A stretch of 62,523 nt of DNA, counting the filler, from Streblomastix strix (Eukaryota): the NCBI GenBank assembly GCA_008636045.1. It is 4 parts of 4 records of this genome, joined end to end, with 100 filler letters (N's around TTAATTAATTAA, not from the genome) between each part and the next. Parts side by side here need not be neighbours in the genome. Positions count along the whole stretch, not along the records: positions 15,661 to 31,217 come from SNRW01000965.1; 3 more parts are not named here. One strand, 5' to 3'. The translations under genes and the position numbers were made by a program. Positions within the stretch are counted from its first letter, which is position 1; the number at the start of each line of letters is the position of its first letter. Positions 14,101 through 52,900 of this stretch are shown here, in pieces. Under the pieces are notes generated by a model. The model was given only the letters and a program-made list of their open reading frames with translations, did no database searches and was not told where the DNA came from.

Positions 14101-15560
14101 ACAAGAAGCACACTTTCATGTGGAATTTGATCATCAGGTGTTCCTGTCCAACGAATCCAAAACAAAGAATCCAATAAAGGTTGAGGGAATAAATCTTCTT
14201 TCTCAATTTTCATAGCAATATGAGCTCTTACTAAATAATTCCCTTTATTTGTTTATATAAAATGAGTTCTACCATATGCTAAGTTTTTTGCTTCTTCATT
14301 TGATCCACCAAATGTTTTGACTGTTTGATTAATCATATCCTTACGTTCTTCATCCAAAGTATGACCACTCAAAATAAATGAAAATGCAATATCTGTTGAA
14401 GATATTGGTTAGATTTAATCAGGAAGTTATGCATCATTTGGTCTATATCCCAAAAAATCATTTGCTCTTCTAAGAAAACGACGAACATCTCTTAAAGACC
14501 ATTTAATGTGTAGAATATCCTTCATTCTATCAACAAACTGTCGAAGTGCTGTTGGTTAAAGTTAACTAATATTAATATTTGGATAATCTGCTTTCATTAT
14601 CTTTTTAATCAACCCTTCCATATCTTTTGCACTTGGATTAGAAACAATAAATCTTTGGAGAAGAGAATCAATAAATAAAGGGAGTTTGACACGTCCTCTT
14701 TCACTGTCATCATTTCCAGCTGCTACAAATAAGAAGCCATTTGCAATTGTAATTGGATCTTTAATTTCTGGATGAATGAATGTTTCACCAGGTCTTGCAG
14801 ATAAGAAAGGAACAAGTCCAATCATCACAGTTGGAGTCAATAAGTTGAATTCATCAGCAAGAAATACATATCCTTATCTTGCTGCTTATACAAGTGGTCC
14901 TTCTACAAATCGGAATCCATTCTTATAAAATGACATGTTACCAATAAACTATTCAACTTAAGTTTCTCCATTGCATGATACAGAATATACTGGATTTCTG
15001 GAATTGAAAGTACGATTAGCACTAAAATGTCGAACAGCTTCTGTTTTCCCACATCCTGGTTCACCTTATAAGAATAATGGCCATCCTGAAGCTGATGATA
15101 TTGTAAGAGCTGCAATACTCTGCCACATTGGAGTATTCCTATCTCCATCATAAAAGAATCTTTATCCTGATTTAGGTATATTTAATGTTCTTTGAATTAA
15201 TATTTCAGCTGCATTAGAAGCCAACACTTTTGGTTGTAATAAGCAAAGAGAAACTAATTCTGAAGCTGGAAGTTTATTGATAATTCCATATGTGGAGCAT
15301 GTCGCATTTGCAAGTTAAGCAATATCTCTTATAGTAGATGTATTAGGAAGTGAAGCAGATAATGCTTAAGCCAATTGATTTATTTAATCTATTTTTGGGA
15401 TTGAAGGTCTAATTCCACGTGTCAATTCTCCTTAATTAATCAATTTCATTTTCTCTGCAACTTTTGAAATGTCGGTTTAAGCAATTAATGTTCGTAATTG
15501 GTCTGATAATTCAGGAGGATCAACTGCAATAGTAACAAATCGATTTCGAAGCGCAAGTGA
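2176..15560 (-). CDS. Giant (>4,300 aa, N-terminus missing) midasin-like multi-AAA+ ATPase fused to three vWA domains, a GATase-like domain and a C-terminal Ser/Thr protein kinase
   Basis: One exon, 15560-3548 (about 4,004 codons), with no in-frame TGA on manual scan. Eight ORF-track fragments (14562, 11622, 10794, 7386, 6156, 5481, 5184, 4566) lie in this same frame. Walker A motifs: GEPGCGKT (~15050), GPTCYKT (~14090), GSPGRGKT (~12730), GESGAGKT (~11770). Walker B: FLADEFN, ILIDEIN, VLLDGVE. Arg fingers: SLALRNRF, LSPALRSRC. vWA motifs: VDISSSM (~7550), VIDNTQR (~6425), LDSSRSM...FTDG (4610-4325). The kinase follows via 7 GT-AG introns (3468-3547, 3055-3135, 2870-2930, ~2795-2859, ~2682-2737, 2428-2491, 2251-2304) with LGKGGFG, MAWKE, HQDIKPEN, ADFG, YEAPE, DMWAIG. 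Stop TGA at 2176-2178. Confidence 0.85.
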
Positions 15561-15660
15561 NNNNNNNNNNNNNNNNNNNNNNNNNNNNNNNNNNNNNNNN
15601 NNNNTTAATTAATTAANNNNNNNNNNNNNNNNNNNNNNNNNNNNNNNNNNNNNNNNNNNN
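15561..15660. other. Artificial contig spacer (N-run with TTAATTAATTAA six-frame stop linker)
   Basis: 44 N + TTAATTAATTAA + 44 N; the identical spacer recurs at 31218 and 46875. Confidence 0.97.
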
Positions 15661-16121
15661 GCTTAAATAGTGAAAGAAGGTCGTATGTCATTTCCCAGTG
15701 CTCATGCATCTACTCTAGCATATACATTTGCATTCTGTATATTTCTTGCATTCAGTTGGAGTTATGAATATTTTGTTAAATTGAAAGCGAAAGAATAAAA
15801 TGACTCTAATGATATATTATTTAAATAATAATTGGTGATGAATTAATCAAAATAAAAATAGCCAAAGAAAAGAAATAAATGAATTTAAACACAATAACTT
15901 AAAATAGAAATAAAACAAGAAAAAGCTTACTTCTAACAATAAGTTTAATCATTTCGTCTTCACTTGCTCTTATTTCATTATTTACATCTATATCTCGTAT
16001 ATCTGATAATAAACACAATATTAGTGATGTTATATGTGGATTTATTCTTGGTGTTGTAGGAGGCATAATAAGTGGATTTGCAGTTTATAAAAACATCTTT
16101 GGACATCTGATATATAGTTGA
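15661..16121 (+). CDS. PAP2-family lipid phosphate phosphatase, 3' fragment
   Basis: EGRMSFPSAHAS (C2 motif PSGH variant) in frame 1 and SRISDNKHNISDVICGFILG (C3 motif SRxxxxxHxxxD) in frame 3, with hydrophobic helices. The frame change implies an intron (possibly 15761-15861) or an indel. Ends TGA TGA at 16119. Confidence 0.85.
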
Positions 16122-16766
16122 TGAATAATTCTTTCATAATTATTCTGCATCTCAAATGGGAGATACAATATAGAAAAAATGAATTCCAATCTAAATCTAT
16201 TATCATGTTATTCTTTGATTATAATTTCAATACCAATTTAAACTATTTATAAAAGAAGAATTACTTTTAATTTTTAATTTTTTGAGAATTTTTTTAGTTT
16301 GTAATCTTATCGTAATAACTTGATAAAATAATATTTTCTGTAACATTCTTCTATTTAGTTTAATAATAATTAATATTTTCATTTCTTTTTTAAAAAAATT
16401 TCGTTTTATTATAAATCTTTTGTTTTATTTTTGTATCATTCTTCAATAGTACATTTTATCTAAATTTATAATTTAACATTAATAAAGAAATAAGTAAACT
16501 TGATATTTAATGTAATTATAACTTAAATCGTTATCTATTTGATATATTACTTAATAAATTTCATAATCCTTGCAATGTAATATTAAATAAATTTAACAAA
16601 TTAAAGAAAGAAGAAGAAAAATAAAAAAAGATGGAAAATAAAAATATAACTACAATTTTTGATTGAAAGAAGGATAAATAATTTATTATAAATAATTTTC
16701 ATAAAAATAAAATAATTCTGATGAATATAATGGATTTTGCAAAAATTTCCATTATTTCTATTTGCA

Positions 16767-19700
16767 ATGTAGAATTCAAGAGATAAAAATGGAAATAGTA
16801 ATGTATATGTAGAAAGTAAGATAAATTCTATAAACCAAGCACAAATACGATTGCAGAGTGCGTTAGATCGAGTCGAGAGAGAAACGAAGCGTATTTCGAC
16901 AGAACTGCAGAATAATATTTTAATTGTGAATTCTTTTGCGAATATGCAAGAACATCCTATAGTTACACGGATAAATTCCGAAATCAAGTCTGAAGTGAGA
17001 GCTTTATGAGATAAGTTGCTTAATTATGAAAAAGATACAACTCAAACGCTGGAAGGGTTAGACCAGAGAATATAATTATGGGAAGATCACAAAGATATTG
17101 AATTCATGAATAAGATATAAAACAATTAAAGTCAATACTCACACTTAACAGATAATAAGCAAAGCAACAATCAAAATATTCTTTCTTCAGGTTCCTACAA
17201 TTCATTATCCTCAAGAGGCAGAAGCTCAATTCAAACTCCCGAGCCTCTTCATACTATTGGATCAGATATTGGACAAGGAATGTCTCTTGGCCAAGCATTG
17301 AGACACATGAACATAAAAGAACAAAACGCTTTGCTTCGAATGGCCTCGCCTCTGCGTTCAACAGTATTATAATTATTATTATTGATTTTATTTATTTCAT
17401 TGTATCCTTATATTTAGGATACTTCAACTTCGCGTATTACTGCCTTAGAAAAGACTATACATGAGCTTCAACTCAAAATTTTACGACCTGAAAATATGAA
17501 TAAATTTCATGATAAATAAAATGAAGAAGAAGAAAGAAATAAAACAATTCATAAATTGGAAGAACAAATTAATGAAATGGAAACATAACTGAATAATGAT
17601 CTCAAAATATAATAAAAACAATATCATGAAACATTTGAGGTAAGCATTTTATTAAATTTCATAATAAATTTAAAATATTTAATTTTATTATATCATATAA
17701 TTAACAAAATATTATTTACAGTAAATCCAAAATAAATTTGAATAGTAAATTCAGCAACTAGCTAATAGAGTTGAAGAATAAGAAAATGGATTTAATTAAA
17801 CTTTTCAGAAAATGTAAAATCATTAGGAAGAAGAACAATAATAAATGAGAAATATTTATGAAAATAATTAAAATGAAAAAGAAAGATAAATTTCAGAAAA
17901 AATTCTGATAAATGTAGAAAAAATGATTAATGAATAAAATTAATTGAAATAGAATTAAATCAGAGAAATTATTTAATAGGAAATAAAAAAAGAAATAAAA
18001 TAAATTACTATTGAATTATAATCATAAAATCAATAATTAACAAATTTTGCTAAACAAAATGAACTGAAATAATTGAAAGATTTTGTTAAATTATAAAATG
18101 AATAAATAGCCAACAAACTTCCAGAACTTCAAAATGAGATAGCAGTGGAAATGGGAAAACAAATTGTCAATCTTTAATTTTAATTTTAATAAGATAATGA
18201 ATCCATCTTATAAGTTATTTAATTAATTGAATAAGAAAATACAACAAATTAATAAGAAACATAGAAAAATATTGTTTTTTAAATTGCATCTGAAGTAAAG
18301 AAGTAATTATAAAATGAAATGGAAAGAATGGTTGAAGTTTGCATATAACGAAGCATTTGTAAGATGAATGAAATTGAAGAGAAGAAGAATAAATATAATG
18401 AAGAACAGAAAAAGAAAGAATTGAATTAGAAAATGTTAAATGAAATGAAATAAGAAATGATTTAAACCCTCAGAAATGAAGCTTAATTAATGATAAGTAA
18501 AGCAATTGATGAGAAAATGTAATAAGGAAAAGAAATATAAAATAAGAAATATGAGATAGAAAATATTTTATAAAAACAAATAAACAAATCCAATAAATAA
18601 GAACACTTAGAATCACAACATTAAAATTAACTACCATCAAAAATTTGTTCTTCAACGGAATAATCATAAAAATCACCATTCTTTCTTTCAGATCCAAATA
18701 TTCCTTTCCCTTCTAATAATTCTTCTTTGAAAGATATCGAAAAAAGCAAATCTCAACCACAAACAAAACGCAAAGAAAGAAAATCAGATTTGCAGTAAAT
18801 TAATTAAGAAAAAGAAAATCAAAATTATCCAAAATTGGGATAAATAGACAATAAAATATTTTCATAAACTTCTCCATAAATATTACTCATAGAATAATAA
18901 TAATAATCAATACAAAAACCAATTTAATTGATTAGAGGAAAAACATCTCCAAATGTTATTTTCTAAGATCTTTTCAATTCAAAATAAATTTCAAATGATC
19001 GAATTTCTTAAATCTAATCTGAATACCAACCAACATTATTACAATCTCATTAAGAATAAGATTAAAATTTAGAATTGAATAAAACAAACTATTTTGAATA
19101 ACAAAATGAATCAAAAGAGATTGAATAAAAGAATGATTACATAAATAAATAAATAAATTCTATTTCTAATGATTAATCTGAATCTTAAATTCACTAATCA
19201 CTTGATCCTCATAAATAATCGACAGCATTGGGAATATATTTTTCATTTCATGAAGAGGATTAACAGATTATTGAAAGTATTGATCGTCGTTTATTTTAAA
19301 TTTTCTAAAGGAAATATCCAATTAATGAATAAAATAATACTGCTATAGTATTTTAGAACTTTAATGAATACACACTTTTCTTAAATCATTTTGAAGATTT
19401 AAATTAATTAGAAGATGAAAATAATTTAAACGAATATGGTTTTATAAGATCAGATATAAAATCATCAAAACAAGGAATGAATCGAGATCCAACTCTGAAT
19501 ATGGTTTCGAATGCAAGTAAATAATCAGTTATTTTAGATAATGAAATGATCAATGAAATTAAAAGATCAAATATTTTTCATTAACATTTAATAGGAGAAC
19601 GTGAAATTGAATAAAATATAATGAATGCATATGGATTAGAAAAATTAGAGAAAGAAAAAGCTGATAAATGGAGAGATTAAGAAGATGAAGAAGAATATAA

Positions 19701-22700
19701 TAATTAGAGAATGAAAACAAACTATGAAAAAGAAGAAGTTGATAATAGAGATTAATTAATAGCTTTTTAAGAGAATGATTAAAGTATTCAGAAATCATCA
19801 AATCTGAAGATAAATAAGGAATTATTGTAGAATTTATAAAATGAAGAAAATAAAGAGGTTGTAGAAGATTATTAAGTGAACTTTAATAATTAATAAATAG
19901 AAAGTTTATAAATGGAGAAATAATCAAAAATTGAAGTTTATTAATAAAATCAAACTGCACCATAACAAGCATAAACATTGAGAAAGACAATAACAAAAAT
20001 AGTGAAGAGAAAAAAAGAGAAAAAATAAAAAGATATTAATGAATAACTCGCATTACTGGAAAAGCAAATTATGAAAACATAACAAAAATATAATCTTAAT
20101 GAAGACATTGAAAATTTATATTATGAAATTGAAAATGAAAACACATTAAATGATGATGATGAAGAAGAAGAAGAATAAGAAGAAGAAGAAGAAGAAGAAG
20201 AAGTTTAGGAAGAAGTTGAAATTGACGTAGAAGTTGATGAGAATGAAAATATCAATAATGATACTGAATTAAATTAACCTTAAATCCAAATTGGATAAAA
20301 CATATAAACCATTCAAGCAGAAAAAAATATATCTAAATTCATCTAAACAAAAGGGAGTGGATTTTTTTCACCTCCAACTTAACAGATATAATATAAACCT
20401 GTATAAATACCATATGTTCATAATCGTACAGGACTATAAAAGTCTGATTTACTTCAATTAAACTAATTAAATGAAGATGATGAAACAAATTATGATTTAG
20501 AATAATTTCGTTAATAATAAAAGGAATAAAATATAGATAGACTAAAATCTTTGTAATAACGAATTTAAGAAAGTGAAAAACGTGGAATTATACTGAGAAA
20601 GATGATGAAAGAAGTAATTGAGAGAGTTATAGATGATAAGAATACAGAATCATATAAAGTCTACAGTTCAATTATTCGAGATGAGAATTCCAAAGTTGAG
20701 AAACGGATAATGGAATAGATTAAGAAATAAAGATAATAAGATAATGAAGATTAAGAAAACTTATTTATAAACGAAAATAAATAATATTCAGATATATCAG
20801 AAGCTGAATATATGAATGGACATATTGAGAAATCAAACGATGAAGAATAAACCGAAGGAAAGCATTTCTTGGATAAACGCTAAGATTAATCATCTAACTC
20901 ACCAATTTCAATGTTTTCATACTCTACATTCCAAACATAACAAACAGATCAAGAATTTATCTCTAATCAAAACTCACCTTTTCATTAATAACCAATTAAA
21001 TATTAGACAATTCTTCAAGTTGAACAAATCAAAGAAGATATAGATGAAGAAACAAATTCAAAAATGAATTCAAATGAATAAAGCTAAATTGACAACGAAT
21101 AATCAGTTGATGAAAAAGGAAATGATAAAATAATTCATGAATTAAATCAAGATAATGATTCAATTTTAAAAGATAATTTAAAATAAATATCTGATTTAGA
21201 AACAGAGAATTTAAGATCAGAAAAGGAAAATATGAAAATTACTAAATCAAATATTTAAACTAATTTATCTTCTTCTTAAACTCGGATTTCACCAAAAAAT
21301 TCTTCTTCTTCATCATCATCTTCATCATCATCATCTTAGATAATTTAAGAATCACAAGATTGATAATAAAATAAAATATTGAAAGATAAAGCTTCAGGAA
21401 TGAAGTCATATATTTCAATCAGCACTGAAGACAGTAATCAAATATCCGGATCTATTTTATCCGATCATATTCATATCACTGATACTGAACATTGTATTTA
21501 ATAAACACTTAACATTGGAAGTTCATAATCACCAAGTATTCAATCAAGTCAGTCTTCTGATTCTGTTTCTGGATCACATTCATCTTAATAAAATCAGAAT
21601 CATCATCTCCGCCATCATATACATCATCATACTCATGAAAACTCATAATAATAGATTAAACATTAAACTTAATAAATAACAAGTCCATCTTCAAAACACA
21701 AAAGTAACCATCATAAGCATAATTAAGACAATTCTCCAGGATAATAAAATAGTTTTAACTAATAAAATCAGGAAGAATTTCTGAAAGAAGCTGATTAATA
21801 ATAAATTTAAAGAAGTAGATCTAGATCTAGATCAATGTAAGTCAATAAAATATAAAGTATTGATTTAATTAATACTGGTTATAGTGTTGGGTAGTTGGAT
21901 TACTTATAGACATTAAATATATAAGCTAAAACAAATGAATAATAATCCAATTAATAGAAATTAGATGAAATAAACTAATTTTAAAATAAATAAAACAACA
22001 AATTTGAATAAAATTAATAATAAATGAATGAAAAATAAATTTTAATTGTCAATCATCCAAACCCTACACATGCGAATACAAATGGAATCATTCAAATGAG
22101 CACACCTACTTAATCACCACGAACACCTGCGAAACATGAAGAAAATAATAAATTAAACGATCCAAACATTTCAGAATCAACTTAATATCTTTCATAATCA
22201 TTTAATAAATATTAATAATAGATTAATAATTAAATTAATTCTCCTTCTTAAAGATAATCACCCACTTAAAGATAATCACCAAATCTTTTACAAGGAAATG
22301 CTAAACCTCCATTATATCAACAAAGCTTGAAACAATAATAAAATCAATGAATGAATTAACCACAGCCTCATTCTCCAATTCTATCTCCAAGATCACCTTC
22401 AAATATATCATTCTCAGCAATTGTTATGAATGCACTACAAATGGCCAATGATCTTCCAGATTCAAGATTATCTCCAAGATTAATTAGATAAGCTGCATTG
22501 TTAGAAACAAGCCATAGTCAAAATAAGTTAATTGATACTAACAATAACAATAATAATGGTATTGCAGATGAAACCCAATTTTATTCAAATCAAGATTTAT
22601 CTTAAATTTCAATGATAGAAGATTCATTCAATACCAAAACTTCAGCGCCTTTAACTTAAGAAGATTTATAAATGAAAGATATTGATAATTATTCAGAAAA

Positions 22701-25700
22701 TGAATTAGAAAGGAATAATGATATAAATGAGAAAAACTTAATTAATTTAAATGATGATTTGTCAATTAATAGAACAATCTATAATCAAAATTCTGATCTG
22801 TAAATATTATCGTCTGAACTATACAGTTCATCATCCTCTAGTTCATCTCAACAAAAAAGACCTAATACACAACATTCTAGTATTCAAATTGCTTCTAAGA
22901 ACATATCTACTAAAATTAATCCTTAATAAGTTTAACCAATTCGATTAATCTCCCCATCTATTCAATCGACTCGTTCTACATAAACAATATCATCAGTTTC
23001 ATCAAACTCTTCAAATGTTATATTTTTAAAACCAGAAACTGAAAGATAATTTTTTGAAAGAAAAGTAGATAATATTCCATTGAGTGCAAGACCTATTCTA
23101 AAAAATTCATTAAAATTAGAAAATCTTCCAATAATAAAAGAGATTCAAAATTAATAACAATCACAGCATGAATAACAAGTATAATAGTTAGGGACTAAAC
23201 TTTAAAATTTAAATTAACTTTCTTTAGTTTAAAACCAACTTTAAGATTAAAAAATGTAAGATAAATAAATAAATATGAAATTTAATGAATTAGAAAATAA
23301 AGAAAAATAAATTATATATGAAAATGATCATGTGAATGCTGATTCAGAACAAATTTCTCTACATAATAATTCAATATATAAATCTGATAAAAATAATATG
23401 AATAGCATGAAAAACTAAGAGAAATTGATTGATTCAAAATAAAATGATATTCAATAAATAATAATATACAATTAAAAAGATAATTTAACAATTGGAAAAG
23501 AAAATGAAGAAAAAATAAATATATTTAAAGATTAATTATAAATTTAATCTTCATCATCTTAATCATAATAAAATGGTAATTCAATTTAATAGTTATATTA
23601 AGAAAATGAAAATATTCAAAATATTAACGAAAAATAAATTGAATATTTTTCAAAAGATGAAAAAGATTAAGATTATTAAAAAGATGAAATTAAATTTGAC
23701 ATTCATAATTTCCAAAATATTGATTTATAAAATGATAAAGGAGATTATTTTCCAGTCCAAATTATTGAATAATTTACATCCAATCAAAAAAACTTATTTT
23801 AATAGTAAAACAATTCTGGAATCTTATTGAATAATAGTTTAATTTAACCATAAAATTAAAATAATTCTGGGAATAATTTGAAATATTCTTCATCTTCAAA
23901 TTAGTAATTTATAATTAATTAAAATTAGAAAAAATCACTTACTATCTCATTACAAACTATATAAAATTAAAATGAATAACAATAAAACTTATAAAATTCT
24001 GATTTGTAAAGTTTAAATTAATCTCAAAACAAATAAAAACTTACAGAATAGGATTTTATATCCACAAAACAAAATAAAGTCTAGCTCCAATCACCAACTG
24101 TTTTTTCTGAATTAGAAAATAGTTAAATGAAAGGGGCTTTTAATAAATCTTCAACAATCACACATTTTGAATCATTATTTTCTAGTCCTTATGCATAAAA
24201 TTTTTTCAATCCAACATCGCCTTTAACAATTGAATCACCTTCATAATGGGAATCAGGATCGATTCATTTAATTGAAAAAGATGAAAATGAAAAATAATAT
24301 GAAGAATTAAATGATAAAAGTTTTATTAAAGATAAATCATATTCAGAAGATTATTCAAACAGTTTAAACATTCATGAAATGAATTAAGAACTTGATTAAG
24401 AAAAAGAAAATGTGAAAAATAATTAGAAAGAATAAAGAGATAGAAAAATAAATAAGAAAAGAGATTTAGAAAAAGAAGAGAGAAAAGAATAAGATAATTA
24501 TTAATAAAAAGAAAAAATCAAACAAATCGAGGGAGAAAAAGAAAAGAAGAAGAAAAATAAAAAGAAAATCAAGAATTTTTTTAATGGATCTTTGAGTGAT
24601 AGAGTTCACAAGAAACATGAAGAAAGAATGGGACTTGCTTTAGATTTTGAAGAAATGTTAAATAAAACGAAATTTAATAAATAAGAATAAGATAATAATA
24701 CAAAATATAAAGACGATGAAATAAATGAAATGATATAAAAATAACTGTAATCAACTCAGAATGGGAAAATAAATTATTAACAACAAGATCAACATCTTTC
24801 TTCAACGATGCCAATAGAAATGAATACCTCATTAATATCAAATAATTCCGATTCATCAACTTAAAATGATGATAAAGAATTAAGTCTCAACAATAAATCA
24901 AAATACGCATAATAAAATCAACAACAGCCTTCTCGCACAATTGCATAGAAGCATCATTTATTAGATTAATCATAAGTGCATAAAGTTAATACAGATCCAG
25001 AAATATATAATTCTAAAAGATCAGAAACTGAATTTGAATCCGATAGAGATTCAAATTAAGACTCTTTTGAATAGATGAAATTTAAAAAGAAGAAAAAGAA
25101 GAAGAAAAAGAAGAAATAATTTGGAGCAGAATTATAATATTAAGGAGAAGAATAATAAGGAGAAGAATTAGGAATAATAAATAATTCAATAACAAATACT
25201 TTTTAGATGCAAACTGCATCAACAGAATGATCTAGTAATTAAGATTCGCAGTCTGAATATTCTTGGGAAATTGTTATTTCTCCAAATAAAAAATAAAAAT
25301 TAACAACCGAGAAAAAACAACCCCTAACTAAATTATAAAATTCATTTAATGCAGAATTTGAAGAATAATAAACAGAATAAGAAACGAAAGAAATATTTGA
25401 TTCAAATTAAAAATTATTATCATCTAAAGATGATTAGTTAAAGTCTGAGAATTTTAATAATAAAGATTTTTACTAAGAAAAAGAAATTATTTGTGAATAA
25501 GAAAAATAAATTATAACTCTTTAATCATCATAATATTAATAGCAGACAAATTCCACTCAATTTTCGAAAGATTTAACATAATTTACTTAATTAACATCTG
25601 AAGCGCAAAGAAAAAATATTTCTCAATGAAATAAGAAATAAGAAAACAATAAATTTATTGATAATTTTATTGATGAAAAAATAAATTTGAGTTCTGAAAG

Positions 25701-27675
25701 CAATGAGTTTCATATTCAACACCCAAGTTTGTAAAGTGAAAAAGGATATGAATTTGAATGAATTAATGAAAATGAAATTATGAATGGAAGCAATAGATAA
25801 TTTTTTGCATCTGATCAATATATTTAATCAACCAAACTAACATAAGATACTCTTAAATAATATTAAACAGATAAAATTCAACAGTCTCTTAATTAATATC
25901 AGAATAATAATTCATCATCTGTTTAAAATGAATTAATTCCGTCCTAATCTGAAATATAATAAAATTATTCTAATTTAAATTACTATCCCTCTCCTGCTTA
26001 AAACAATGATATTGATTTATTAACTGTAACAGATGAACATATTCCTATTAATGGAAATGAATTTATTAAAATGAAAACTAAAATAAATTAATTGAATAAA
26101 ATTAATAAGAAAAACAATATTCAAAGAGATTCACGATAAGAAATAAACGAATTGATAAAATAAAAAGAAATTTATAATGAAAATACTAGAGAAGATGAGA
26201 AAATAGATGAAGTAGAAGATATTTGAGATAAAGAGATAAATAATTTGAACAGTAACAGTGAAATTAATTTTTATTAAGAAGAAATGGAAAATCAATTCTA
26301 AAATAATATTAATTCTGAATAAAATTAATAAATGCTTCAAAATCAAGAAAAATAATAAATAAAACTTTAGGATCAAGAAATAATAAAATATTCTTAAAAT
26401 ATTAAATAATAATAAATTGAATTGGTGAATCAAAGATAATTTGGCTTTTTAGCAAATAAATAATAAATTGATAGAGAATTCGAAGAGAAAGGAAAATTTG
26501 AATTATAACAACAATAATAATTAAATAATTAAGAAAAAATCGAATAGTTGTAATAACAATAAGAATTAATTTAGAAATAATGCGACATCAACAATCAACA
26601 AGTAAATCTTTCTTTAAATATAAATGATTCTTAACACTCAATTCATCATTTAAGTTAAATTGATGATAATTAATCAGGACTGTCCTTAATATCTTCATAT
26701 TAAGATTTTTAATACAATTCACAAACTTCTTACTCTTAAAAATCTTCTTTATAATTATAAGATCTCTCACATTAATGAGGAAATAATATAAATGAATAAT
26801 GAAATAAATTAGAATTTGTTTAAGATAATGAAAATAATTAGATTTAAATGGATTATAATAATTAGGATTTTAAAAAGAATGAAAAATATGATAAATATGA
26901 TGGGAATAATATTGACAGCTCACATACAACCATCGATGATGATTCAAGTTCATAGAATGACTTTTTAGCTAAAGTCTAATAACATGATATTTATCCTCTT
27001 CTTATAAGACATCCTGAATCTGTTATAACATTATCTCTATATGAAAAACAATTTGTTAAAACTGATGAATAATTTAATGAAAATATGTTGATTGATTAAA
27101 ATGATTAAGGAGAATAAAAAGAAGAAAATAATTAACTATTATAGCCACAAATATAAGAAATTGATTTATTTTCACATGCAAAGTTTGCACAAGATAGAAG
27201 AACTCATTCATTAACAAAATTAAATCCTCATTAAACATCTCAATAAATATTAAGAAGTTTGAGAAGAAAATTAAGTTTGGATGAACCTAAGACTAATTAA
27301 TAATTAGATGATGAAATTAATTCTACTTTCTCCATTCCAAATGAATAGACATCTTTATTTGCTACTCCTTCATAATAAACAATTTCATATTAAAATTCTT
27401 TAACTAAATCTTTTTCAAATTAAAGTAGATAACTTTAATCTACAAATAAAGATGGATATAATTAAAATAATTAAATATAAGGATAAAATTCTAATAAATA
27501 GGAATGGAAGAGAATTTATATTGATGGAACATAAGATAAAAAAATTGATACAGAATTGGTAATTAACAAATCATGGAAAGATAATTCTATTGAAAGCGAA
27601 ATAGAGAAAATGAAAGAGAAAAATATTAAATAAGAAGATGAGAAGGATGATGACAATAAATTATTAGTTGAATGA
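16767..27675 (+). CDS. Very large (~3,600 codon) Gln/Asn/Glu/Ser-rich protein with N-terminal coiled coil, unknown function; nine internal in-frame TGA codons
   Basis: ATG at 16767; GT-AG introns at 17364-17417 and 17640-17721; then frame 1 continues without frameshift for ~10 kb to TGA 27673, followed by T-rich non-coding DNA. Internal TGAs at 17007, 21361, 22348, 25228, 25627, 25759, 26224, 26776, 26800, with no change in coding-like composition across them. Confidence 0.7.
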
Positions 27676-31217: not shown

Positions 31218-31317
31218 NNNNNNNNNNNNNNNNNNNNNNNNNNNNNNNNNNNNNNNNNNNNTTAATTAATTAANNNNNNNNNNNNNNNNNNNNNNNNNNN
31301 NNNNNNNNNNNNNNNNN
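31218..31317. other. Artificial contig spacer
   Basis: N-run with TTAATTAATTAA linker. Confidence 0.97.
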
Positions 31318-34300: not shown

Positions 34301-37300
34301 AAAAATCATCTCCATAATAAAATATCTAATTTCCAAAGTATCAACCATTTATACTCAGTATGCGAGATGAATTGATGCTCACAGTTACCAGATATATAAC
34401 TTCTGATAAATCGCACAGTTCAGATGAAGATGCTGAAAAAATTAATAAAGATGAAAGTAGTAATATTACATAATTGAGCAGAATATTATAATCTGATGAT
34501 GAAACTGATAATCCAAGTGAAGAATTTATCCACTTAAAGAGAAGTGGTATTATTACATTAAGAAAACTTTCAGAACTTCCTCCAGCCGTTTCGAATGAAC
34601 TTCAAAGTAAAATTTTGATGAAAATAATTCCCCAAACACGTTTCGATATTACTTTTGGTTAATAAGTTATACCAAATAAGTTAATTGATGACTTTTAAGA
34701 AGATTAGATAATAATATTAGATGAAGAAAGCGTTCTTGTTAAGAATCTTAATGGAATCTAAGATCAATTCAAAAAGGAGCAAAGAGATATACCAAACATT
34801 ACCAATCTTATATCAACTCTTGTTTTAACTTTCTTATAAACATCAATCGCATCTTTGAATGTTCAATTATCAAAGAATAAAAATAATTCAAAATCCACAC
34901 ATCAAAAAGATAATATTCATTCTTCTGAAACAAAGATCTAAACTGGATATGATTTTGGGATGAGTTAGTTTCTGCGTCTTTGTGGTATTTTCTTACCATT
35001 TACACGACATTAAAACCCTTCGCTAAGATATTGTGCATTAGACATATACATTACATTTCTCAGAACATTTATTGAATTAACATCTGAAAGAATCAAAACT
35101 TTATATCCGCCTAATTCAACTGTTTATAACTTATTAAATTTTAAATGTCTTGGCGTAATTATTGCTTTACTCACTCCCAGAATAGTTGATGATTATATAA
35201 AGATTAGACAACTGGCCTGTGATTCTTTGGGATTAACTCTTTTTGCTGATCAGATTTTCCATAATGATATTCGTGTTGGATTTGATAATATTCCATCTTC
35301 AGAAATTATTGGAGTGGCCGAGTTACGAAGTTTTGTCTCTGAATGGCCAGAATGCAACATATAAGATTGGTGGAGAAAGAGATAAGCTCCAATTTAACTG
35401 TAATAATATATTAATAATTCAATAACCAACTATAGTAATTCAATAACCAATAATAATAATTCAATAACCAACAATAGTATTTCATTTAATCATTTCTCTT
35501 TGAATCATTTAAAGATTAAGAGTAAATATTAATAATAATTGAACACAACTTCATTATCTCCTTAACCTCCTCCACCGATGGAAAATCGAGATTTATTTTC
35601 AACTTCACAAATAAATAATGATTAAATTTCTAAACCACTTCCACCAAATTAGCCAAATATTATTATTATTACATCTTTCATTACTTAAAAACTATCAAAA
35701 TATCTCAATTCTTATCTGAAACTAGAAGAATTTATTGACACTGTTTCTGCACTAATCAGATTTGGAGTTTCTGATCCAACACATTAAGGCAAACTTCTCT
35801 GTATGAAAATGGCTTATGGATTAATCATTCGATTTGAAAACAATGGAAATTCAATTATTGATTTGCTTACTAAAAACAGCAATGAGATAAACGAAGTAAA
35901 CAATATGAATAATATTGAGCATTCATCATCTAAACTTATTCCTTCTGAAGCAGTTCATACTTTAGTTAAATGTGTTATTGATGCAATAACTCTTGAACCT
36001 TCATCGAATCTAACATCTTCAAAATCTTTATCTTCATTACCTTAAGAAATTAATGATATTACACAACACAGAAGAAACATATCCCAATTTATTGGAGAAG
36101 GGAAAATAGAAACAAAATAAGAAGAATCTGATTATTCTTGGATTGTAACAGATTCTGCAATCATTGGAGGTAGTTCTAACCACATAATTCCACTTCCAAC
36201 TTTTCCACAAAAACAAATTCCTAATGATGTTCAGAGAGTTGTGCTTATGTGCATATAAGCTCTTACTCTTAATCATTCATAAAATGTATTCAATTAACTA
36301 TTGGAGTAAACATAAGAAAGAAGGAATTAAGCAAATTTAGCATTCTAATAAATTGTATTTGAAGCTTGTGGATAAGAAAATTCATCTTAATAACAACCTA
36401 TGGATGACATTGATTTAATTTAATAGATTGTATTTTCCATTCGCACAAATTGCGCTCATAATTTGATGAAGTTTCTTTTGAATACAATCAAAGATCCAAA
36501 TTAATATGAAGTTAAATAAACACGTGAAAAGGAGATCTACAGACCATTATATAAACCTCATGCTGCTATATAAGCTCTGAATGCAATATTTAAGATGCCT
36601 CAAAGAAAATTAAAAATAGAATCTAAAATTGTTTCAAATAAAAAGAAATTGAATAAAAATAAAGAAATAAAAAGCATTGATTTAGAGATATTATAAAACA
36701 AATAAGAAAATAATAATGAATAGAAGAAACTTACATCAGATGATATTGAAGATTATATAGTAAGTATTGATCCATTGAAAAGTGAAGGAAGTGAGATTTA
36801 TTAAGCTTTAAGCAACTTGCGTCTGAATGATTCTTCTCCTTCATTCATTTATATGTATATTCCTGTAGTTGCAACAACTCTTCTTGCTCATATTGGCGTC
36901 CTTCATGTATGCGATAATGAAGTGGATAATTAATTTAATGGAGGAATTAATGGACATCTTATGTTTGTCTGCGCCGCTTTAAAGAATATTTTTTAGTATA
37001 TTGGACTTGTTAGTATTAAAACAAAGATTCTATATCCAGTTACATACAAATGTGATTCAACTTTACATCTCACATCATCTGATTAAGAAACAGTCAATTA
37101 AGGCGTAGTTGCTGATTATTATGAATCTCTTATGGACAATGATTGAAATGAAGCTCAGAAATAGTTGGTTTTCTCAAGTCAAGCTCTGAGTGCAGCAAAA
37201 TCTGGGATCAATCTTAGGAAAGACTAACAATAAGCATAGAAAGAGGAGATTATAGCAAATTAATAATAATAGAAAGCAATTGATGAAATTAAGAGATTGG

Positions 37301-40811: not shown

Positions 40812-42132
<1,321 letters not shown>

Positions 42133-42158
42133 AAGCTCCTTCAGTTCTTTAGGGAATT

Positions 42159-42312
42159 CTCTCCTTATTTATATTTCACCTCTGGTTGGAATACATATTT
42201 TTGGTGGGCCAGAGGTGAAATAAGGAGAGATGAGGATCACAAATCATTAACCTGCCTCCAAGGTAGATGGTGATAATAATTGATTACCGCCTTCTCTCCT
42301 TATCTCACCTCT
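42159..42312. repeat. Inverted-repeat / hairpin module at the DIRS 3' end
   Basis: TCTCCTTATTT..TTTCACCTCTGG (~42159-42185) is complementary to CCAGAGGTGAAATAAGGAGA (~42209-42228). A third copy, TCTCTCCTTATCTCACCTCT, lies at ~42293-42312. Confidence 0.75.
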
Positions 42313-43320
42313 TTATTGAGATACCTAGTTTAACCTTTCATTATCTTGGCCTGGATTATTTGTCAATTACCTTGCTATTTCGTTTGCTCTTATTGAGTAT
42401 GCGATGATGTAGTATTGTTGAACAGTACGTGAGTTTTAGGAGTGGTGTGTAAAGGTAGCGAGATCTCTTTCAGGGATACCTAACTTTGCAAGTTCTGTTG
42501 TTGCTGAGTGTCGTATTGAGTATGCTGATGCTCCTACTATCTTCAGTTCTCTTAATAGTTCTGTAAGTTGTAGACTGATATCTTTTGTAGTTGTTGGTTT
42601 ATTAAAACCCTTATACCACAATAAAAAGTCTGTACCTTTAGGAAATTGTTTCTTTAATCTGTCAACCCATTCATATATTACTTATTTTGGGCTTAATTTT
42701 TCATTGATTGTTTCTTATACTTCTTATGCTTATATTACTTCTGCTTGTTTTGGTGATAGTCCTAATGATGCTTGATTTTCTGTTTTGCTTACATTTGAGA
42801 ATTTTAGTCTTATTTCAGCCATTTCATTTGGCCTGATGAAGCATAATGAAATAAGTAATGAGGATATTTTAACCTGTAAGTCATAGTTGTTTAAGTATTT
42901 GTTTTGTTTTGATTATCTCCAATGGTTGAATAGTATTTGGATATTCCAAACGTTTTAATACCTTCTGTGTGGTATTGTTGCATTTGCTAGTGCTTTGTTG
43001 ATTAGTTTTGAAGTTGATGAAGATACTAAATTCTCTTTGTATATTAATGATAGCGTTGTAGTTAGGCAAGCTTTATGGGATTTAGCTGATGCAACTGAGT
43101 TGTTTTGTCTAGTGTTGAATGCAATTACTTCTGTTAATGTTACTTCAGCATCTCTCTTCATCATTTCTTCAATTGTTATTCTTTCTATGTCCAACCAATC
43201 CTGTAATAATGCTAGGGAGTAAAAATCCCTCTTAACTGTATAAAATCTTCGTCCTTTGAATAGTATATTGATTCCATCTTCAAAGAATCCTCTCACCTTC
43301 ATATATCTCATTAGCAAATC
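42240..43320 (-). pseudogene. DIRS tyrosine recombinase
   Basis: LCFIRPNEM (catalytic Arg), YSIRHSATTELAK (HxxR-like box), FTHHSQNSRTVQQYY (His and Tyr nucleophile). Frameshift near 42950. Confidence 0.85.
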
Positions 43321-43339
43321 TCTCCCGACGTCTGCAACA

Positions 43340-45270
43340 GGTCCAGAAGGAAGGCTTTAATGTTGCCTGGTGGAAGCTTTTGATCATTGTATTTTGTTCT
43401 CTGTCACATCTCCAGAATTCTCTCTGATAATACAAAGAAAAGGAATTTAATGGATAAATTTTTTAGTTTGGTGTGCCATGATTGTCCCGGTCAGATCGGT
43501 GCTATAATTATTACCTGTGCTTTATCATATTTCATTTTCTACAATATCCAATTTAATACTAGTATTGGATGATGGATATATAATTTGACTTTACTCCATT
43601 TGTATTTGATAGCGTTTTGGAAGTGTGTCCCACGGTCGTTAAGATCCACTGTTACATAGATTTTAATTAGTTTATTATATTGTGTTGCGAATATGTCTAT
43701 CTGTGGCATGCAATTGCAAGTCTTACTAATGATTTAAATCATTTCGTCCTTCAGTGTGTAGACTCCTGATCTGCGCAGTCTAGAGAATGAATCTGTCGTT
43801 GAGTTCAATTTTTCTGAGGTGTGAATTGTAGTTATTTGTAGTCTAAGTCTATTCACAAGGTAAAATACTAGTTTTATTCTTTTCATTCAGATATTCCTTT
43901 ACTTTTCATTTCCCAATATCGTAGATTGCTGTTATGTTATCTGAACGTATCAAGATTGCCTGATCTTGCATCTTCTTAAAGACTTGCTCGAAACGAAGTA
44001 GCCCGTAGTAAATAGCCTTTGTTTCTTTAGCATTGCTTGTCATCTCCACTTCCTTCTTGTTCCAACAGTCGTGTTGTATCAATTCTATCTGGTTATCGTA
44101 TATTAGCGTCGCTCCCCAGCCCTATGGAGATGCGTCTGTCGTTAACATGCATGATATTGTTTTGTTAAACAATGTCTCTGAATGGTTATCTCTTATTTTC
44201 ATTATCCACCATTTAGGTTCTCTGATTACTACTTTGTTTACTATCATTATTCCATCCCATGATCCCGTCTTTAACGCTTGTGCTTTCGCTTTGTCTAATT
44301 CTGTTAGATACAGAGACGCTTCTTTTATCTGAAGTCTCAGGAAGTTCAATCTGCCTATCAGCGCTGCTAGTTATCTTATTTTCACGAATTTGTAATTATA
44401 TATTGTGTTGCTCCAGTCTCTCAATGCTTTTATTATTTTCGACTTTCTTTCTTCTGAAATTCAGATATTCGTTTTTTTCAAGTTCCATATCCATCCAAAG
44501 AATGTTATTATTTATTTCGGTTTCGTTTCGCATTTCTCTGGTGATATTGTCCATCTGAATTGCTCCAATGTTCTCAATATTTCTGTCGTTTCTGTTTTAT
44601 GTGTTTGATTGTCTTTGTGTATTAGAAGTATGTCATTGCAGTAATTCAGAATTTTAATTTCTGAATGAATTCATATTTATCCAAGGGTTGATTCTATAGC
44701 TTCCCCGAAGATGATTGGGTTATGCTTAATCACAAAAGGAATTGTTTTATATGCATAATTATTATTTATGTCAAATATTAGGTATTGTATTGAGTTAGGA
44801 GATATAGAGATGTGGTTAAATGATGATTTGAGGTCGAAGGATGTAACGTAATCCGTATAGTTTGCTAGGTATTGTATTTCCTTTTGATCATGCATTTTGA
44901 AGTGTAATTTCTCTATTTCCTTTTTCAACTTTCTCGCACCCAAAATCTTTCTCCAAGTTCTATTGCATTTCTTTATCAGGAGTGTATGGTTCCACCATTT
45001 CACTTGATCCTGTTAAATAGGCATTATTATTCCTTCTTCCAATTCTTCCCTCAACATTTCTTGGTAAGCGTCCTTTTTTTCTTACGTTCCTCTAAATTAA
45101 ATTTTTATTTTATTCTCCTCTAATCTTTATTAACTATTCTAATCTTTAAATCTCAGATAAAATCGAATGTTTTTGAAGTCATCTTTTCCTATCTATTTCC
45201 ATGCACATATATATCTTTTGGCTTTTCCTACTATTCCATTCTCCTTTTATTTATATATCATTTCACCAAT
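43340..45270 (-). pseudogene. DIRS pol: reverse transcriptase, RNase H and DNA N6-adenine methyltransferase-like domain
   Basis: RT: KWWNHTLLIKK...WRKILGAR, TSFDLKSSFNHI, IPFVIKHNP, NYCNDILL (YxDD mutated to YCND). RNase H: TTDASPQGWGA, IRSDNITAIY, TDSFSRL. MT: IDIFATQYNK, IIIAPI*PGQSW. Confidence 0.85.
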
Positions 45271-45289
45271 CCTTTCCTCCATATCCTGA

Positions 45290-46874
45290 GGAGCCGTCTT
45301 CGTCAGCACGCTCCTCTTCTCTGTTCCAGAGGGAGACCTCAACGCCGATCTCTCTTGATTGGAGTGTCCCTACCCGATCAGGGCTCTACTCCATTTTATC
45401 CTTTTAATTAGAGTTTTTTGGTTCGGGTTTAACCTATTGGGGTTTTTTTAGGCGTAACCATAGGTTTTGGAACTTCGGAAGCTGTTTTAGCTTGAGCATG
45501 TGCATTTCTGCACTGGTTTGGTTCATTAGAGGAATTTAAGCCCTCTATTTTTGTCTTTTTGCTTCCTCCTCCTTACTTACGCTTCACCAATACTCCAATT
45601 GGAGCACGGCCTGGATTATTTTTTTCCATTTAACTCATGGTATTTAAGCCTTGGTCAATTTATGGTTATGTTCCCAGATTCTCTTAAGCTTGGGGCTATG
45701 AGATTATATTAACTCTATAGTCTTTGTTTTGGATTAGTGCTGCTTCAACGGTTTACTCATCTTCTTCCTCTTTAACATTAGCCTCATGGCTTTCATTTAT
45801 TTAAGAATCTGTTCTTTCCACATTACCGGTTGATATTAATCCCGTTTCTTTTAGCCTCAGCCTTGCATTAAAGCTTGTGCTCTGGGCACTAGAACTCGGA
45901 TACAAACCAGTAAGAAGTCCAACAGTTCCCTAAATATCAGGTATAACAACATTCCTATAGTTGAGATCATTGTTTTCTTATTGTTAAATCTATTGAGTTG
46001 CTTTTAATTATTACAATTCTCTCTCTAATTTCTTTTATCTTTATTTAATTCCAGCTCTATGTTGAGGTTTCTGTGTTGGAGTAACTGATAGTTATGATTA
46101 GTTAACTGGTTCATCTTTGTTTGTTCCTGTATTAATCATCCATAGTAATGGTGAATCTATCCTTTATTAAGTTTTAGAACCAGTTGTTAATTATTATAAT
46201 TTTGTTGATTAGAAATTGCTTGTTGCACCATTTCTTGCAATTGATTCTGAGCGACCTGGGTGCTAGATTATTATTGTTGTCCATTGCACCAATTAATTGT
46301 TACCAATCACTGTCTGAATCAGATATACTCAAATCTTCCCTCTCTTTCTATAGTGCTGCAAGTCTTTCCTGAATTATTTCTAACTCATCAATGTCATCTT
46401 AGCTCGGTGGTTAATCTCTTCTCCCTTTTTTCTTCTGTACTAGAGCTGGAGACTGTTATTTCGGTTGTACTTGTATCTATTATACTCTTTGTGTATGTTT
46501 AGCTGGATATTTAGGATGTGGTGATGTAACATGATGTTAGGGGGCATCATCTTCTGTCCAAGTTGAATCTTTATCATTATGGTTGTCTGGTGGGTCTTTC
46601 TGCATTTATGTGCGTTTTGTCCACTCATCATTTGGGTTGTCATCCCAACTTTCTCCTTCATATTAGTGTGACCTATTCCAGTTTATCGGATTTTTTGTCA
46701 TGTTAAAGGTCTATTTTGTAAATGGATTATATTTTTATGCTTCTCTGTATCTATCCTAGTTAAATTAATCTCTGTCTTAATAATTTGAACCCTTTTCTTA
46801 ATAATTGTACCCTCTTCCTCTATACGTTCCCCTACCTCTACCTCTTTATTCGTTCCTAGTCTCAAATCCATTAT
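45290..46874 (-). pseudogene. DIRS gag-like ORF1, frameshifted
   Basis: Arg/Glu-rich then Gln/Pro-rich coding-like sequence directly upstream of RT in the element. No recognisable catalytic motif; assigned by position. Confidence 0.55.
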
Positions 46875-46974
46875 NNNNNNNNNNNNNNNNNNNNNNNNNN
46901 NNNNNNNNNNNNNNNNNNTTAATTAATTAANNNNNNNNNNNNNNNNNNNNNNNNNNNNNNNNNNNNNNNNNNNN
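46875..46974. other. Artificial contig spacer
   Basis: N-run with TTAATTAATTAA linker. Confidence 0.97.
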
Positions 46975-49900: not shown

Positions 49901-52900
49901 CATTATTTATAATTATCCGCAGAATTTAATATCTTTTCCATTAATAGAAGAAATATATGTTGGATTTGGAACATTTGATGTAAACGATTATTCAAATAGA
50001 GGATTATGAAGATCAAGATTGATCGTTCCTGGATTAGATGTTTAAATAGATTAATTGATTCCCATATAATCATATGCATATGAGAGAGATGTATAAAGAT
50101 CAGATATTATATTTGAAGGATTAAATAAATCTTTAATTGTAATAAGATTTCCATTTTTAATTGCTTCTCCAGTTGCAAGTGTGTTAATCGATTCAATATG
50201 AATATTATTTCCGATTGAATTAACTGCTGAACATCCAATGAAAATAAGATCTCTCATTAAGAAATTTGATTCATTAAGATTTTCTCCAATAATTGAAGTG
50301 CTTATTCTGATTGCTCCTCCCCATCCATAATTTTAATCGGATGGATTTGAAATAGTTTTACAATTAATGAAAGATGAATTAGTGATTGATATTATTGAAT
50401 TAGGATGTTGAAATAAACATAAAGCTCCTCCATCTCCAGGCTAAGTACTAGCGCAACTATCAAATGTTGCATTTTCAATATTAATTGTACCATATTATAA
50501 ATATGTATTAATTCCTCCTCCATTATTAGATATACTTTTGCATTCTGTGAATAAGCATTAATATTTAACATTAATTTATCCTCCTTAACTAATACTCAAA
50601 TACATTCCACCTCCTGTTTCAGTAGAACAATTTTTAAATAAGCATATTTAAGAAATTAATAGTGTTGCATTTGAATGAACAGCTACAAATAATCCTCCTC
50701 CTTAACTTCCAGAAGTGCAGTTCTAAAATTATACATCTATTAATTCTAAGATAGAATTTTCTGAATAAATCCATGCTTCAATTCCTCCTCCATCAGCGTA
50801 TGCTTCACAGTTAGTAAATTCAGTCCTATTAAAAATTTACTTCATTTATTCAAATCCACTAACAAATATGCCACCACCTTCTCTGTATGCATTGCAATTA
50901 TTGAATTAAACTTTGTTAATTATGATGGTTCCATACCCATAAATATAAATACATGCTCCACCACCCCAAGCTGAAGTACAATCTTCAAACTTCACTCCAT
51001 CATCTAATGTGAATTAACTGTTCAAATCGGAAATTTAAACAATAATCCCACCTCCACCATATTCAGAAGAATTACATTCAATAAACTTGCACAATCCTTC
51101 AATAATGATTTTTCCACCTGATTCTACTTATACAAATATTCCACCACCATATCCAGATTCACATTGATTGAAAGATGAATTTGATATTGTTACTTATCCT
51201 TCATTATTAATATTCAGATAAATAGCTCCTCCTTAAGAAGATCCTTTACATTCAATAAATTCAGATCCATCAATCAATAATTGACTTCCAGTTAATAAAT
51301 TTGCATTAATCGCTGCTCCATATTCATCTCCAGATAATTATATATTAGAGAATGTTGATTGAATAATTTCAATTTAATTAATTCTATAAACATTTGATGA
51401 ATGAATATAATCTGGTTAAGTCATTAAATAAATGTTTCCATTATTAAATTTATATTTTGATATCTTTGTTTTAATAATGCTCATTTATCCTCCATTAATT
51501 GAGATGATTGAATGTGAAAGACTTGAACTTGAATTTGAATAAGAAGATGAATCTTGATTGAATTCACAATCAATTATTGATAGAACTGGAATTAAATTAT
51601 TATCATCGCTTCTTATTGAGATAAGTGGATTTATTGAAGGTGGATTAAGATTATCAAAATGAAGTCCAAGAAGCGAAAGATCTCCTGTTTCACTTATCGT
51701 GAATAGAGAATTGCTAAATGATGATGTTGAGATTGATTATTTATTGTAAGTATCATTTTCCGTTTCTGGTGAATATCCTTCAGATTGAATTATAATTTTA
51801 AATCCAAATGAAGAAAGTGAATTAATTTATATATCATATTCTAAATTCGTTGAACTCAAAAGTTTAATTATTATTATATCTTAATCTTTTTTAAAGTTTT
51901 AAATCTTAGTTCCATCAAAACTTAATAAGTATTTAATTTTTTTACAAGGCATTTCTATTTAACCACAGAATACATTATCAATTCCATCAAATGCATTAAC
52001 AAGATATGGATTTAGAAATATTCAAAACGGAGGATTAACAAAAAGAGGTTCATGGAATGAAATTGGAGTATTTCCATTAATTGCTTTTGATTCATCTATT
52101 CCCATATAATTTGTACCATATAGTTTATTTTCATACAAATTAGTGGTTTCATTAACTGTAAGAAGACTTCCATTTTTAATTGCTTTTCCAGTTGCAAGAG
52201 TATTTGATGATTGAATATGAATATTATTTCCAATTGAATTAACTGCTGAACATCCAAAAAAAATAAGATCTCTCATTAAGAAATTTGATTCATTAAGATT
52301 TCCAGCACTAATTTAAGTTTAAATGAATATTGCTCCTCCCCATCCATATCTTGAATATGATGAATTTGAAATAGTTTTACAATTAATGAATGATGAATTG
52401 GTGATTGATATTAATGATGAAGATCCTTGAATCAAAGCTATTCCTCCTCCATTCCCAGATTGAATACAATTACAACTATCAAATGTTATATCTTCAATAT
52501 TAACTGTACCATCATTTATATCTGAGTAAATTCCACCTCCATTACTTGATGTACTTTTGCATTCTATAAATAAACATTAATCTTTAATACTAATTTATCC
52601 TCCATTATTAATAATTGAATATATTCCACCTCCTATTTCAGAAGTACAATCTTTAAATAATAATTTATTAATTTCAACTGTTGATTAATTATAAATTTAT
52701 AAGTAGAATCCACCTCCAGATTAATTACTCTCACAATTTATGAATGAAGATAGTCCTGCAATAGAAAATTATCCTCCAGAAACATTAACATATAATCCTC
52801 CTCCATAATTAGCTAAACAATCTTTAAATGATATATTATTAATATCGGCAGTTGATTAATTATGAATTTCTAAATATATTCCTCCACCATAACAATTTCT

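Follow-up and report, generated by a model that had tools for sequence, protein, structure and literature searches.

Nine in-frame TGA codons were found in a long gene of Streblomastix strix, a protist of the termite gut. The TGAs are real and interrupt a frame that is open apart from them; where a TGA of the window could be aligned (one in this gene, one in another), homologues have Gln or Arg rather than Trp. We favor, with moderate confidence, the explanation that the nine TGAs arose by ordinary nonsense mutation in a copy of the gene that likely became non-functional recently, and that UGA is still a plain stop. The original prediction, in which UGA was both Trp and stop, stood with respect to the background code, the reality of the TGAs, the frame and a synonymous excess among variants, while Trp was not supported and the argument from missing indels was weak. 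The window, i.e., the whole stretch of 62,523 nucleotides analyzed, consists of four contigs, each about 15.55 kb, linked by N44-TTAATTAATTAA-N44. The features of the gene are as follows.

16767..27675, plus strand: long gene, N-terminus coiled-coil, then Q/N/E/S/K-rich low-complexity sequence
17007..17009, plus strand: TGA 1, codon 81, inside a domain continuous in the paralog P0145, opposite Gln
17364..17417, plus strand: predicted intron 1, 54 nt, GT..AG, 59% T, frame-preserving
17640..17721, plus strand: predicted intron 2, 82 nt, GT..AG, shifts the genomic frame
21361..21363, plus strand: TGA 2, TAA TAA directly after
22348..22350, plus strand: TGA 3, CAA before, ATG after
25228..25230, plus strand: TGA 4, in frame
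25627..25629, plus strand: TGA 5, preceded by CAA
25759..25761, plus strand: TGA 6, in frame
26224..26226, plus strand: TGA 7, in frame
26776..26778, plus strand: TGA 8, preceded by TAA
26800..26802, plus strand: TGA 9, preceded by TAA
27673..27675, plus strand: terminal TGA, gene end

After removal of the two predicted introns, whose boundaries come from sequence and not from RNA, the predicted spliced CDS comprises 3590 codons with 9 internal TGAs and 6 TGG, in agreement with the roughly six TGG counted before. The gene retains an intact start codon and, at both introns, intact splice pairs. The earlier claim that the gene contains no frameshift held for the spliced CDS, in which the frame was kept, but not for the genomic frame, which changes at the predicted 82-nt intron (17640-17721). 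Of 131 windows along the long exon, 128 gave their top score to the coding frame, as did every inter-TGA stretch, which confirmed the coding-like composition described across the TGAs. The codon score held level along the gene, with the 3' part as high as the 5' part, and dropped to about zero past the terminal TGA. Four scanned pieces of the gene gave no Pfam family, and the Atlas matches for P0145 all fell below the naming bar, the shape suggesting only a long helix. Gene-specific CpG hypermutation was considered and rejected, as the observed/expected CpG ratio of 0.57 resembled that of the remainder of the window (0.46-0.61).

All nine predicted TGAs were present, and seven were matched by run X1, whose well-anchored contigs bridge them letter for letter with all their differences placed elsewhere. 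TGA 21361 had an X1 match, but only 16 letters from a contig end, and in the X1 coverage of TGA 17007 one of seven differences was unplaced. Between the X1 contigs and the window, 18 letters differ over about 9.4 kb, and the bridged TGAs are nevertheless shared, so that these TGAs do not look heterozygous. X2, which belongs to another study, has the gene only as 200-330-nt pieces, and none of the 8 pieces listed spans a TGA. The spread of the TGAs was uneven, six of the nine falling within the final 23% of the CDS (KS p=0.04), and a Gln neighbor stood at five of them, compared with 27% of all codons. Splicing-out of the TGAs, which had been raised as an objection, was not borne out: a T-rich in-frame GT..AG intron covered none of the 10 sites tested, under a T-richness filter that the two predicted introns themselves pass only partly.

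Streblomastix strix is assigned NCBI table 6, with UAR as Gln and UGA as stop (Keeling and Leander, 2003, as given in the available text of PMC13002328). UAR is Gln in the source organism: TAA/TAG swap with CAA/CAG among the variants of the long gene, and long ORFs, up to 4097 codons, are open only with TAA/TAG read as sense. The organism and the UAR=Gln background named in the original prediction were thus both upheld. Heavy TAA use was common to all scored host genes, the long gene included. The homologues were S. strix proteins, and a 2,685-bp GenBank contig of this species carries the matching stretch P0144, identical at 47 of 47 residues; the gene model there begins at an out-of-frame ATG just downstream of TGA 17007. 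Pattern scans for further Streblomastix DNA returned 8 metagenome loci, read as chance matches, 0 viral contigs and 0 prokaryote genomes. In the main text of a 2026 oxymonad paper, UGA and TGA occur 0 times.

In-frame TGAs were present in host genes of three of the four contigs, and three further features of the window bear on them.

31318-39075, next contig: HEAT-repeat-like gene, 7.8 kb, with one in-frame TGA at 37144..37146 (plus strand) and without a frameshift
42244..46874, minus strand: decayed DIRS-like retrotransposon with RT, RNase H and tyrosine recombinase, used as neutral control
52022..52024, minus strand: single in-frame TGA of a repeat-family gene on contig 4

No homologue or orthologue of the HEAT-like gene was found among 5408 candidates of 1561-4455 residues. 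Decay was frequent in the window, as seen in the retrotransposon, in a kinase gene with a TGA at 41089, and in the repeat-family gene, which besides its TGA is frameshifted at a (TA)n run near 55945. The retrotransposon pol has 5 TGAs and 1 frameshift and its gag 1 apparent frameshift, while its recombinase ORF is open; a query search of viral contigs gave no relative of it. TGA made up 9 of 3590 codons in the long gene and 2 of 12,211 in the other scored host genes (p=6e-5). All six host genes reported to end in TGA do so, their ends being inferred from sequence. A second TGA lay within 7 codons at three of these six (p=0.06), a comparison that does not tell the hypotheses apart. There was no tRNA gene within the window.

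The residues opposite the TGAs were compared. TGA 17007 faces Gln in the intact paralog P0145 (27% identity, 183 columns), and a conserved Trp 24 codons after it is written TGG. Opposite TGA 52022, the three closest paralogous repeats (81, 86, and 71%) have R, Q, and R, respectively, and one at 46% has R. Trp columns were therefore found at 0 of the 2 alignable window TGAs, the residues being Gln or Arg/Gln, and in a neighbor model with thin Trp training Trp ranked last of 20 residues and Gln second; the neighbor score for Arg versus Gln fell inside the spread of both. A conserved motif in 103 S. strix family proteins has Trp at 59 of 64 instances, and 0 of 64 showed a protein end at the motif Trp (upper 95% bound 4.6%), although annotation and search favor intact copies. 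P0121, one of 24 complete S. strix family proteins, ends just before a Trp column, P0023 could end at either Arg or Trp, and the partial proteins P0014, P0109, and P0129 end before Trp, possibly at contig ends. False introns skipping Trp in annotated paralogs were rejected as well, with Trp in 3 of 18 gaps against 1.4 expected. As far as these alignments indicate, the predicted meaning of UGA as Trp is not supported by homologues, in a small sample of two TGAs.

Downstream of the first TGA, 17 of the 32 listed variants were synonymous, compared with 24-29% expected (p=0.0004-0.004). The 32 leave out 16874 (upstream of the first TGA), the adjacent changes at 24850-24852 and four multi-contig rows at 27541-27575; with the 24850-24852 changes added, 17 of 35 listed variants were synonymous (p=0.002-0.011). 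Under a model of loss after the X2 split, 38% would be expected to be synonymous (p=0.06, listed variants). While the overall 17/32 differs from neutral, neither the X1-only listed variants (5/10, p=0.07-0.13) nor those listed beyond 21361 (5/12, p=0.14-0.25) do so, and significance was reached only between 17010 and 21360, where 12 of 20 listed variants were synonymous. Table 6 with UGA never sense fits the aligned residues but does not fully fit this excess.

The nonsense target of the gene is unusually large, since its Gln is written mostly as TAA, which is one A-to-G step from TGA: 217 per unit divergence, of which 119 (55%) come from TAA. A-to-G mutation at any of the 356 TAA Gln codons would produce a TGA, and from this target nine TGAs would need about 4% neutral substitution. 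Frameshifts would arrive slowly enough for such a copy to have none in roughly a tenth of cases. Scaled from the retrotransposon control, which has 5 TGAs to 1-2 frameshifts, 2.0-2.9 frameshifts would be expected in the long gene against 0 observed (P(0)=0.05-0.13). The argument that a pseudogene would be unlikely to gather nine nonsense changes and no indel is thus weak in this genome, and TGA:frameshift counts were 9:0 in the long gene and 8:3 in the rest of the window (Fisher p=0.22). In a decaying copy the ribosome would halt at codon 81 or, given a downstream start, at whichever TGA comes next, and the synonymous excess might be a residue of the functional period or of selection in the other lineage. 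Counting against decay are this excess among listed variants, the shared TGAs, the intact start and splice pairs, the level codon score, and the HEAT-like gene, which sits on an unselected contig and has an in-frame TGA without a frameshift.

That S. strix has no dedicated stop, with UGA terminal near the poly(A) tail and sense internally, is a tentative alternative as a whole, and its two versions are less probable each. In the first, the gene is alive and internal UGA means Gln (or Arg), for example because a UAA-decoding tRNA-Gln beats a weakened eRF1; UGA would then carry a small cost, so that genes under constraint lose it whereas a disordered, Q-rich one tolerates it. We regard this as rather unlikely, even though Gln would be the likeliest internal meaning of a read-through UGA. 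It agrees with the excess of synonymous variants and the open frame, with the Gln neighbors, the TGAs on three contigs and the Gln found opposite both aligned window TGAs in at least one close homologue. Gln also gave the smallest gene-to-gene mismatch (TGA:TAA p=0.009, vs 1e-5 for CGA and 4e-7 for TGG) and the second neighbor rank, and yeast read-through at Gln-flanked UGA is about 8% in the available text of PMC13192750. However, a dead gene undergoing TAA-to-TGA mutation would show each of these features too. Passing nine serial stops demands near-complete read-through, 0.08^9 being nil, yet the TGA:TAA ratio is 9:356 where that of TAG:TAA is 41:356. A CGA-to-TGA change is indicated at 52022, since Arg occupies three of the four closest paralogous repeats, and a nuclear code with UGA as Gln or Arg was not found in the available parts of the ambiguous-code literature examined.

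In the second version, the code is that of table 27 (UAR as Gln, UGA as Trp/stop), with sense UGA kept rare, as in Parduczia, Condylostoma and Amoebophrya sp. ex Karlodinium. All dual-UGA codes in the available parts of the literature examined use Trp, and they can go unnoticed when rare (PMC4967479, PMC6394959, PMC5304391); the ends of P0121, P0023 and the three partial proteins could be read in its favor, and the synonymous excess and open frame would fit any read-through. We still consider it quite improbable, given that 0/2 Trp columns has p=0.03-0.08 at Amoebophrya's 72-83%, that TGG to TGA is 71:2 in the other host genes and 6:9 here (p=4e-7), and that the motif Trp and the neighbor model speak against it as well. 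The low and uneven TGA counts do not by themselves refute an ambiguous code, because true ones are rare, at 0.042-0.12% of codons in ciliates (PMC4967479), and uneven between genes (PMC6394959), as far as the available texts go. Only a slim chance is left for other explanations, in which the locus is partly alive, making a short protein that starts downstream of 17007 and ends at 21361 beside a decaying 3' remnant, or the TGAs are removed or edited in the RNA. The restriction of the significant excess to 17010-21360 and the clustering of TGAs toward the 3' end would suit a partly living locus, but TGA 17007 splits the domain that is continuous in P0145, and the 3' codon score equals the 5' one. 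Removal from RNA is opposed by the lack of intron-like sequence over any TGA.

If the gene is a decaying copy, the point is a modest one: table-6 genomes make their commonest Gln codon a one-step nonsense target, the genome carries many dead gene copies, and its annotation would be fragmented. If UGA were read through, this would be a new, independent origin of context-dependent termination without a dedicated stop, in Metamonada, perhaps seen at an early stage and with UGA given an amino acid not assigned to it before, and S. strix gene models would be cut at sense codons. With UGA as Gln, all three standard stops could mean Gln, and such a Gln/Arg meaning is absent from the available parts of the literature examined. 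The UGA question is directly testable, since deposition of single-cell transcriptomes of Streblomastix is reported in PMC13002328.

Compared with S. strix under table 6, the window likewise has UAR as sense and TGA at gene ends, but the long gene and two others contain in-frame TGAs. A recently inactivated copy (unitary pseudogene or null haplotype) would likewise show several in-frame stops one mutation from common codons, retained coding-like composition and decayed neighbors with stops and frameshifts; unlike it, the long gene is free of frameshifts over 10.8 kb, and its variants are enriched in synonymous changes. According to the available texts, Parduczia sp. and Condylostoma magnum (PMC4967479) and Amoebophrya sp. 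ex Karlodinium veneficum (PMC6394959) share with the window UAR as Gln and rare in-frame UGA, here 0.07% of codons against the ciliate range (PMC4967479). As in these codes, UGA stands at gene ends and the flanking bases do not separate internal from terminal codons. In contrast, their UGA is mostly opposite Trp (72-83% in Amoebophrya; PMC6394959), lies in essential genes, and has been demonstrated to be translated in C. magnum (PMC4967479), whereas the residues opposite the alignable TGAs here are Gln/Arg.

The window joins four contigs, each of about 15.55 kb, by artificial linkers (N44-TTAATTAATTAA-N44), so genes on separate contigs are not neighbours, and ORFs crossing a linker are artefacts. 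Table 6 (UAR=Gln, UGA stop) leaves long ORFs open in the window, and the best homologues of its proteins were Streblomastix strix proteins. Besides the main gene (16767-27675, plus strand), the features are as follows.

15561-15660, 31218-31317 and 46875-46974: linkers
3408-15560, minus strand: gene of about 4000 codons, several dynein-related AAA domains and a C-terminal VWA domain
15670-16124, plus strand: 3' end of a PAP2 phosphatase gene, with two tandem TGAs at its end
17364-17417, plus strand: predicted intron 1 of the main gene, GT-AG
17640-17721, plus strand: predicted intron 2, GT-AG, shifting the genomic frame
31318-39075, plus strand: HEAT-repeat-like gene, one in-frame TGA at 37144, no frameshift, weak C-terminal Pfam HEAT match
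40900-42170, plus strand: protein kinase gene with introns, in-frame TGA at 41089, a position not alignable to the two kinases compared
42244-46874, minus strand: decayed tyrosine-recombinase retrotransposon with RT, RNase H and recombinase matches
46975-62523, minus strand: repeat-family gene filling contig 4, TGA at 52022, frameshift at a (TA)n run near 55945

The spliced CDS of the main gene has 3590 codons, including 9 internal TGA, 12 CGA, 356 TAA and 6 TGG, the last as originally estimated, and its start and splice sites are intact. The best-scoring frame was the coding frame in 128 of the 131 windows and, likewise, in each interval from one TGA to the next; past 27675 the coding score was about zero. 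The frame had originally been described as running on without a frameshift; it is indeed open and coding between the TGAs, but predicted intron 2, unmentioned there, shifts the genomic frame. A search for intron-like stretches over the nine TGAs found none, and a Pfam scan of four pieces of the gene named no family. The GenBank model EZS28_034492 (protein P0144, 2,685-bp contig) matches 17026-17461 on the plus strand. Its start is out of frame and its frame after intron 1 differs from that of the main gene, and it is likely a mis-prediction around the TGA.

The in-frame TGAs themselves were confirmed in contigs of sequencing run X1, which span seven of them and have all their differences at other positions. 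TGA 21361 was matched close to a contig end; for TGA 17007, which is also covered, six of seven differences could be placed. These TGAs are not simple assembly errors, though the support is not independent because X1 may be the source sample of the window. Over about 9.4 kb, X1 and the window disagree at 18 letters, none of them in a bridged TGA, which suggests that the TGAs are not heterozygous. X2, a run from another study, was about 3.6% divergent over the 8 pieces listed: of about 2 kb, 74 letters differ, and there is one net 3-nt gap. None of these pieces spans a TGA.

The original prediction that TGA encodes Trp was not supported by the aligned residues, the codon counts or a neighbour model. 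The residue comparison rests on the two window TGAs alignable to homologues. TGA 17007 falls within a domain that runs unbroken in the S. strix paralog P0145 (27% identity), and Gln stands opposite it there; the conserved Trp nearby is TGG. At TGA 52022, the repeat of 81% identity has Arg, that of 86% Gln and that of 71% Arg, and a 46% identical repeat also has Arg. This repeat family is large (about 100 GenBank relatives, many fragmentary). Of 24 complete S. strix family members, a single one has a Gln/Ser column just past its end, another has Trp there, and a third is ambiguous (Arg or Trp); three partial proteins also stop short of Trp, though these stops may be contig ends. In a conserved motif of the family, 59 of 64 instances carry Trp, a position at which none of the proteins ends. 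The TGG:TGA ratio was 6:9 in the main gene compared to 71:2 in the other host genes scored (p=4e-7); the AAA/VWA gene, with no intron seen, has 32 TGG and no TGA. The neighbour model placed Trp last and Gln second, Gln and Arg not being separated.

Three observations favour a living gene: an excess of synonymous variants, the intact start and splice sites, and the HEAT-like gene carrying a TGA with no frameshift. Downstream of the first TGA, 17 of the 32 variants listed, drawn from the best 40 of 172 differences ranked by depth, were synonymous, against 24-29% expected. Among these variants the excess was significant only before 21361 (12/20, compared to 5/12 beyond) and weak for those listed only in X1 (5/10); it has p=0.06 if the main gene died after the X2 split. 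The first ~44 codons of the HEAT-like gene are repeated near 32750, perhaps through duplication, perhaps through misassembly where the contig begins.

The retrotransposon, which we take to be of the DIRS type, served as the frameshift control. It shares the host's TAA/TAG=Gln, and a recombinase ORF of 379 codons remains open. Its pol has five TGAs, presumably at Arg, Arg, Trp, Trp and Gly positions, and one frameshift, and its gag has one apparent frameshift. Scaled to the main gene, this rate gives 2.0-2.9 expected frameshifts and P(0)=0.05-0.13, figures that depend on a by-eye reading of one or two events and are subject to selection, the main gene having been chosen for its lack of frameshifts. 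Nine stops without an indel had been called odd for a pseudogene; no frameshift was seen, but by this control the argument weighs less.

The main gene is probably a copy undergoing ordinary decay in a table 6 genome. Its nonsense target was 217 per unit divergence, 119 from TAA, by an X2 substitution spectrum that includes noise from unrelated contigs, and about 4% neutral change would yield nine TGAs. TAA-to-TGA mutation would also account, with no code change, for the Gln in P0145 and the Gln-rich surroundings (Gln neighbour at 5 of 9 TGAs). A living gene would fit the same data, with every step inferred: internal UGA might be read as Gln or Arg, which we consider rather unlikely, or as Trp, which is less probable still, and distance to the poly(A) tail would set termination, as proposed for Condylostoma. 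Nine stops in series would demand near-complete read-through, far over the 8% at Gln-flanked UGA that was measured in yeast (PMC13192750). Decay is ranked first because the mutational target suffices and such read-through would be needed. Least probable is a gene that still makes a shorter protein while its 3' part is dead, or TGA removal at the RNA level. Overall, a dual meaning of UGA in Streblomastix has about one chance in three.

The main-text passages returned by a full-text literature search make no mention of UGA being read as sense in oxymonads, and describe Streblomastix solely as TAR=Gln (PMC13002328, PMC10120064, PMC8629427, PMC5304391, PMC9161772, PMC6394959, PMC4967479, PMC13192750). 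A low count leaves Trp some probability, since UGA is also sparse in Condylostoma and Parduczia (0.042 and 0.12% of codons in the excerpt of PMC4967479), compared to 0.07% in the window. In Amoebophrya, by contrast, 72-83% of UGA align to Trp (passage of PMC6394959), whereas the alignable window TGAs stand at Gln or Arg/Gln; given that range, Trp columns at 0 of 2 have p=0.03-0.08. A Trp meaning is disfavoured by this comparison together with the aligned residues, the motif, the TGG:TGA counts and the neighbour model.
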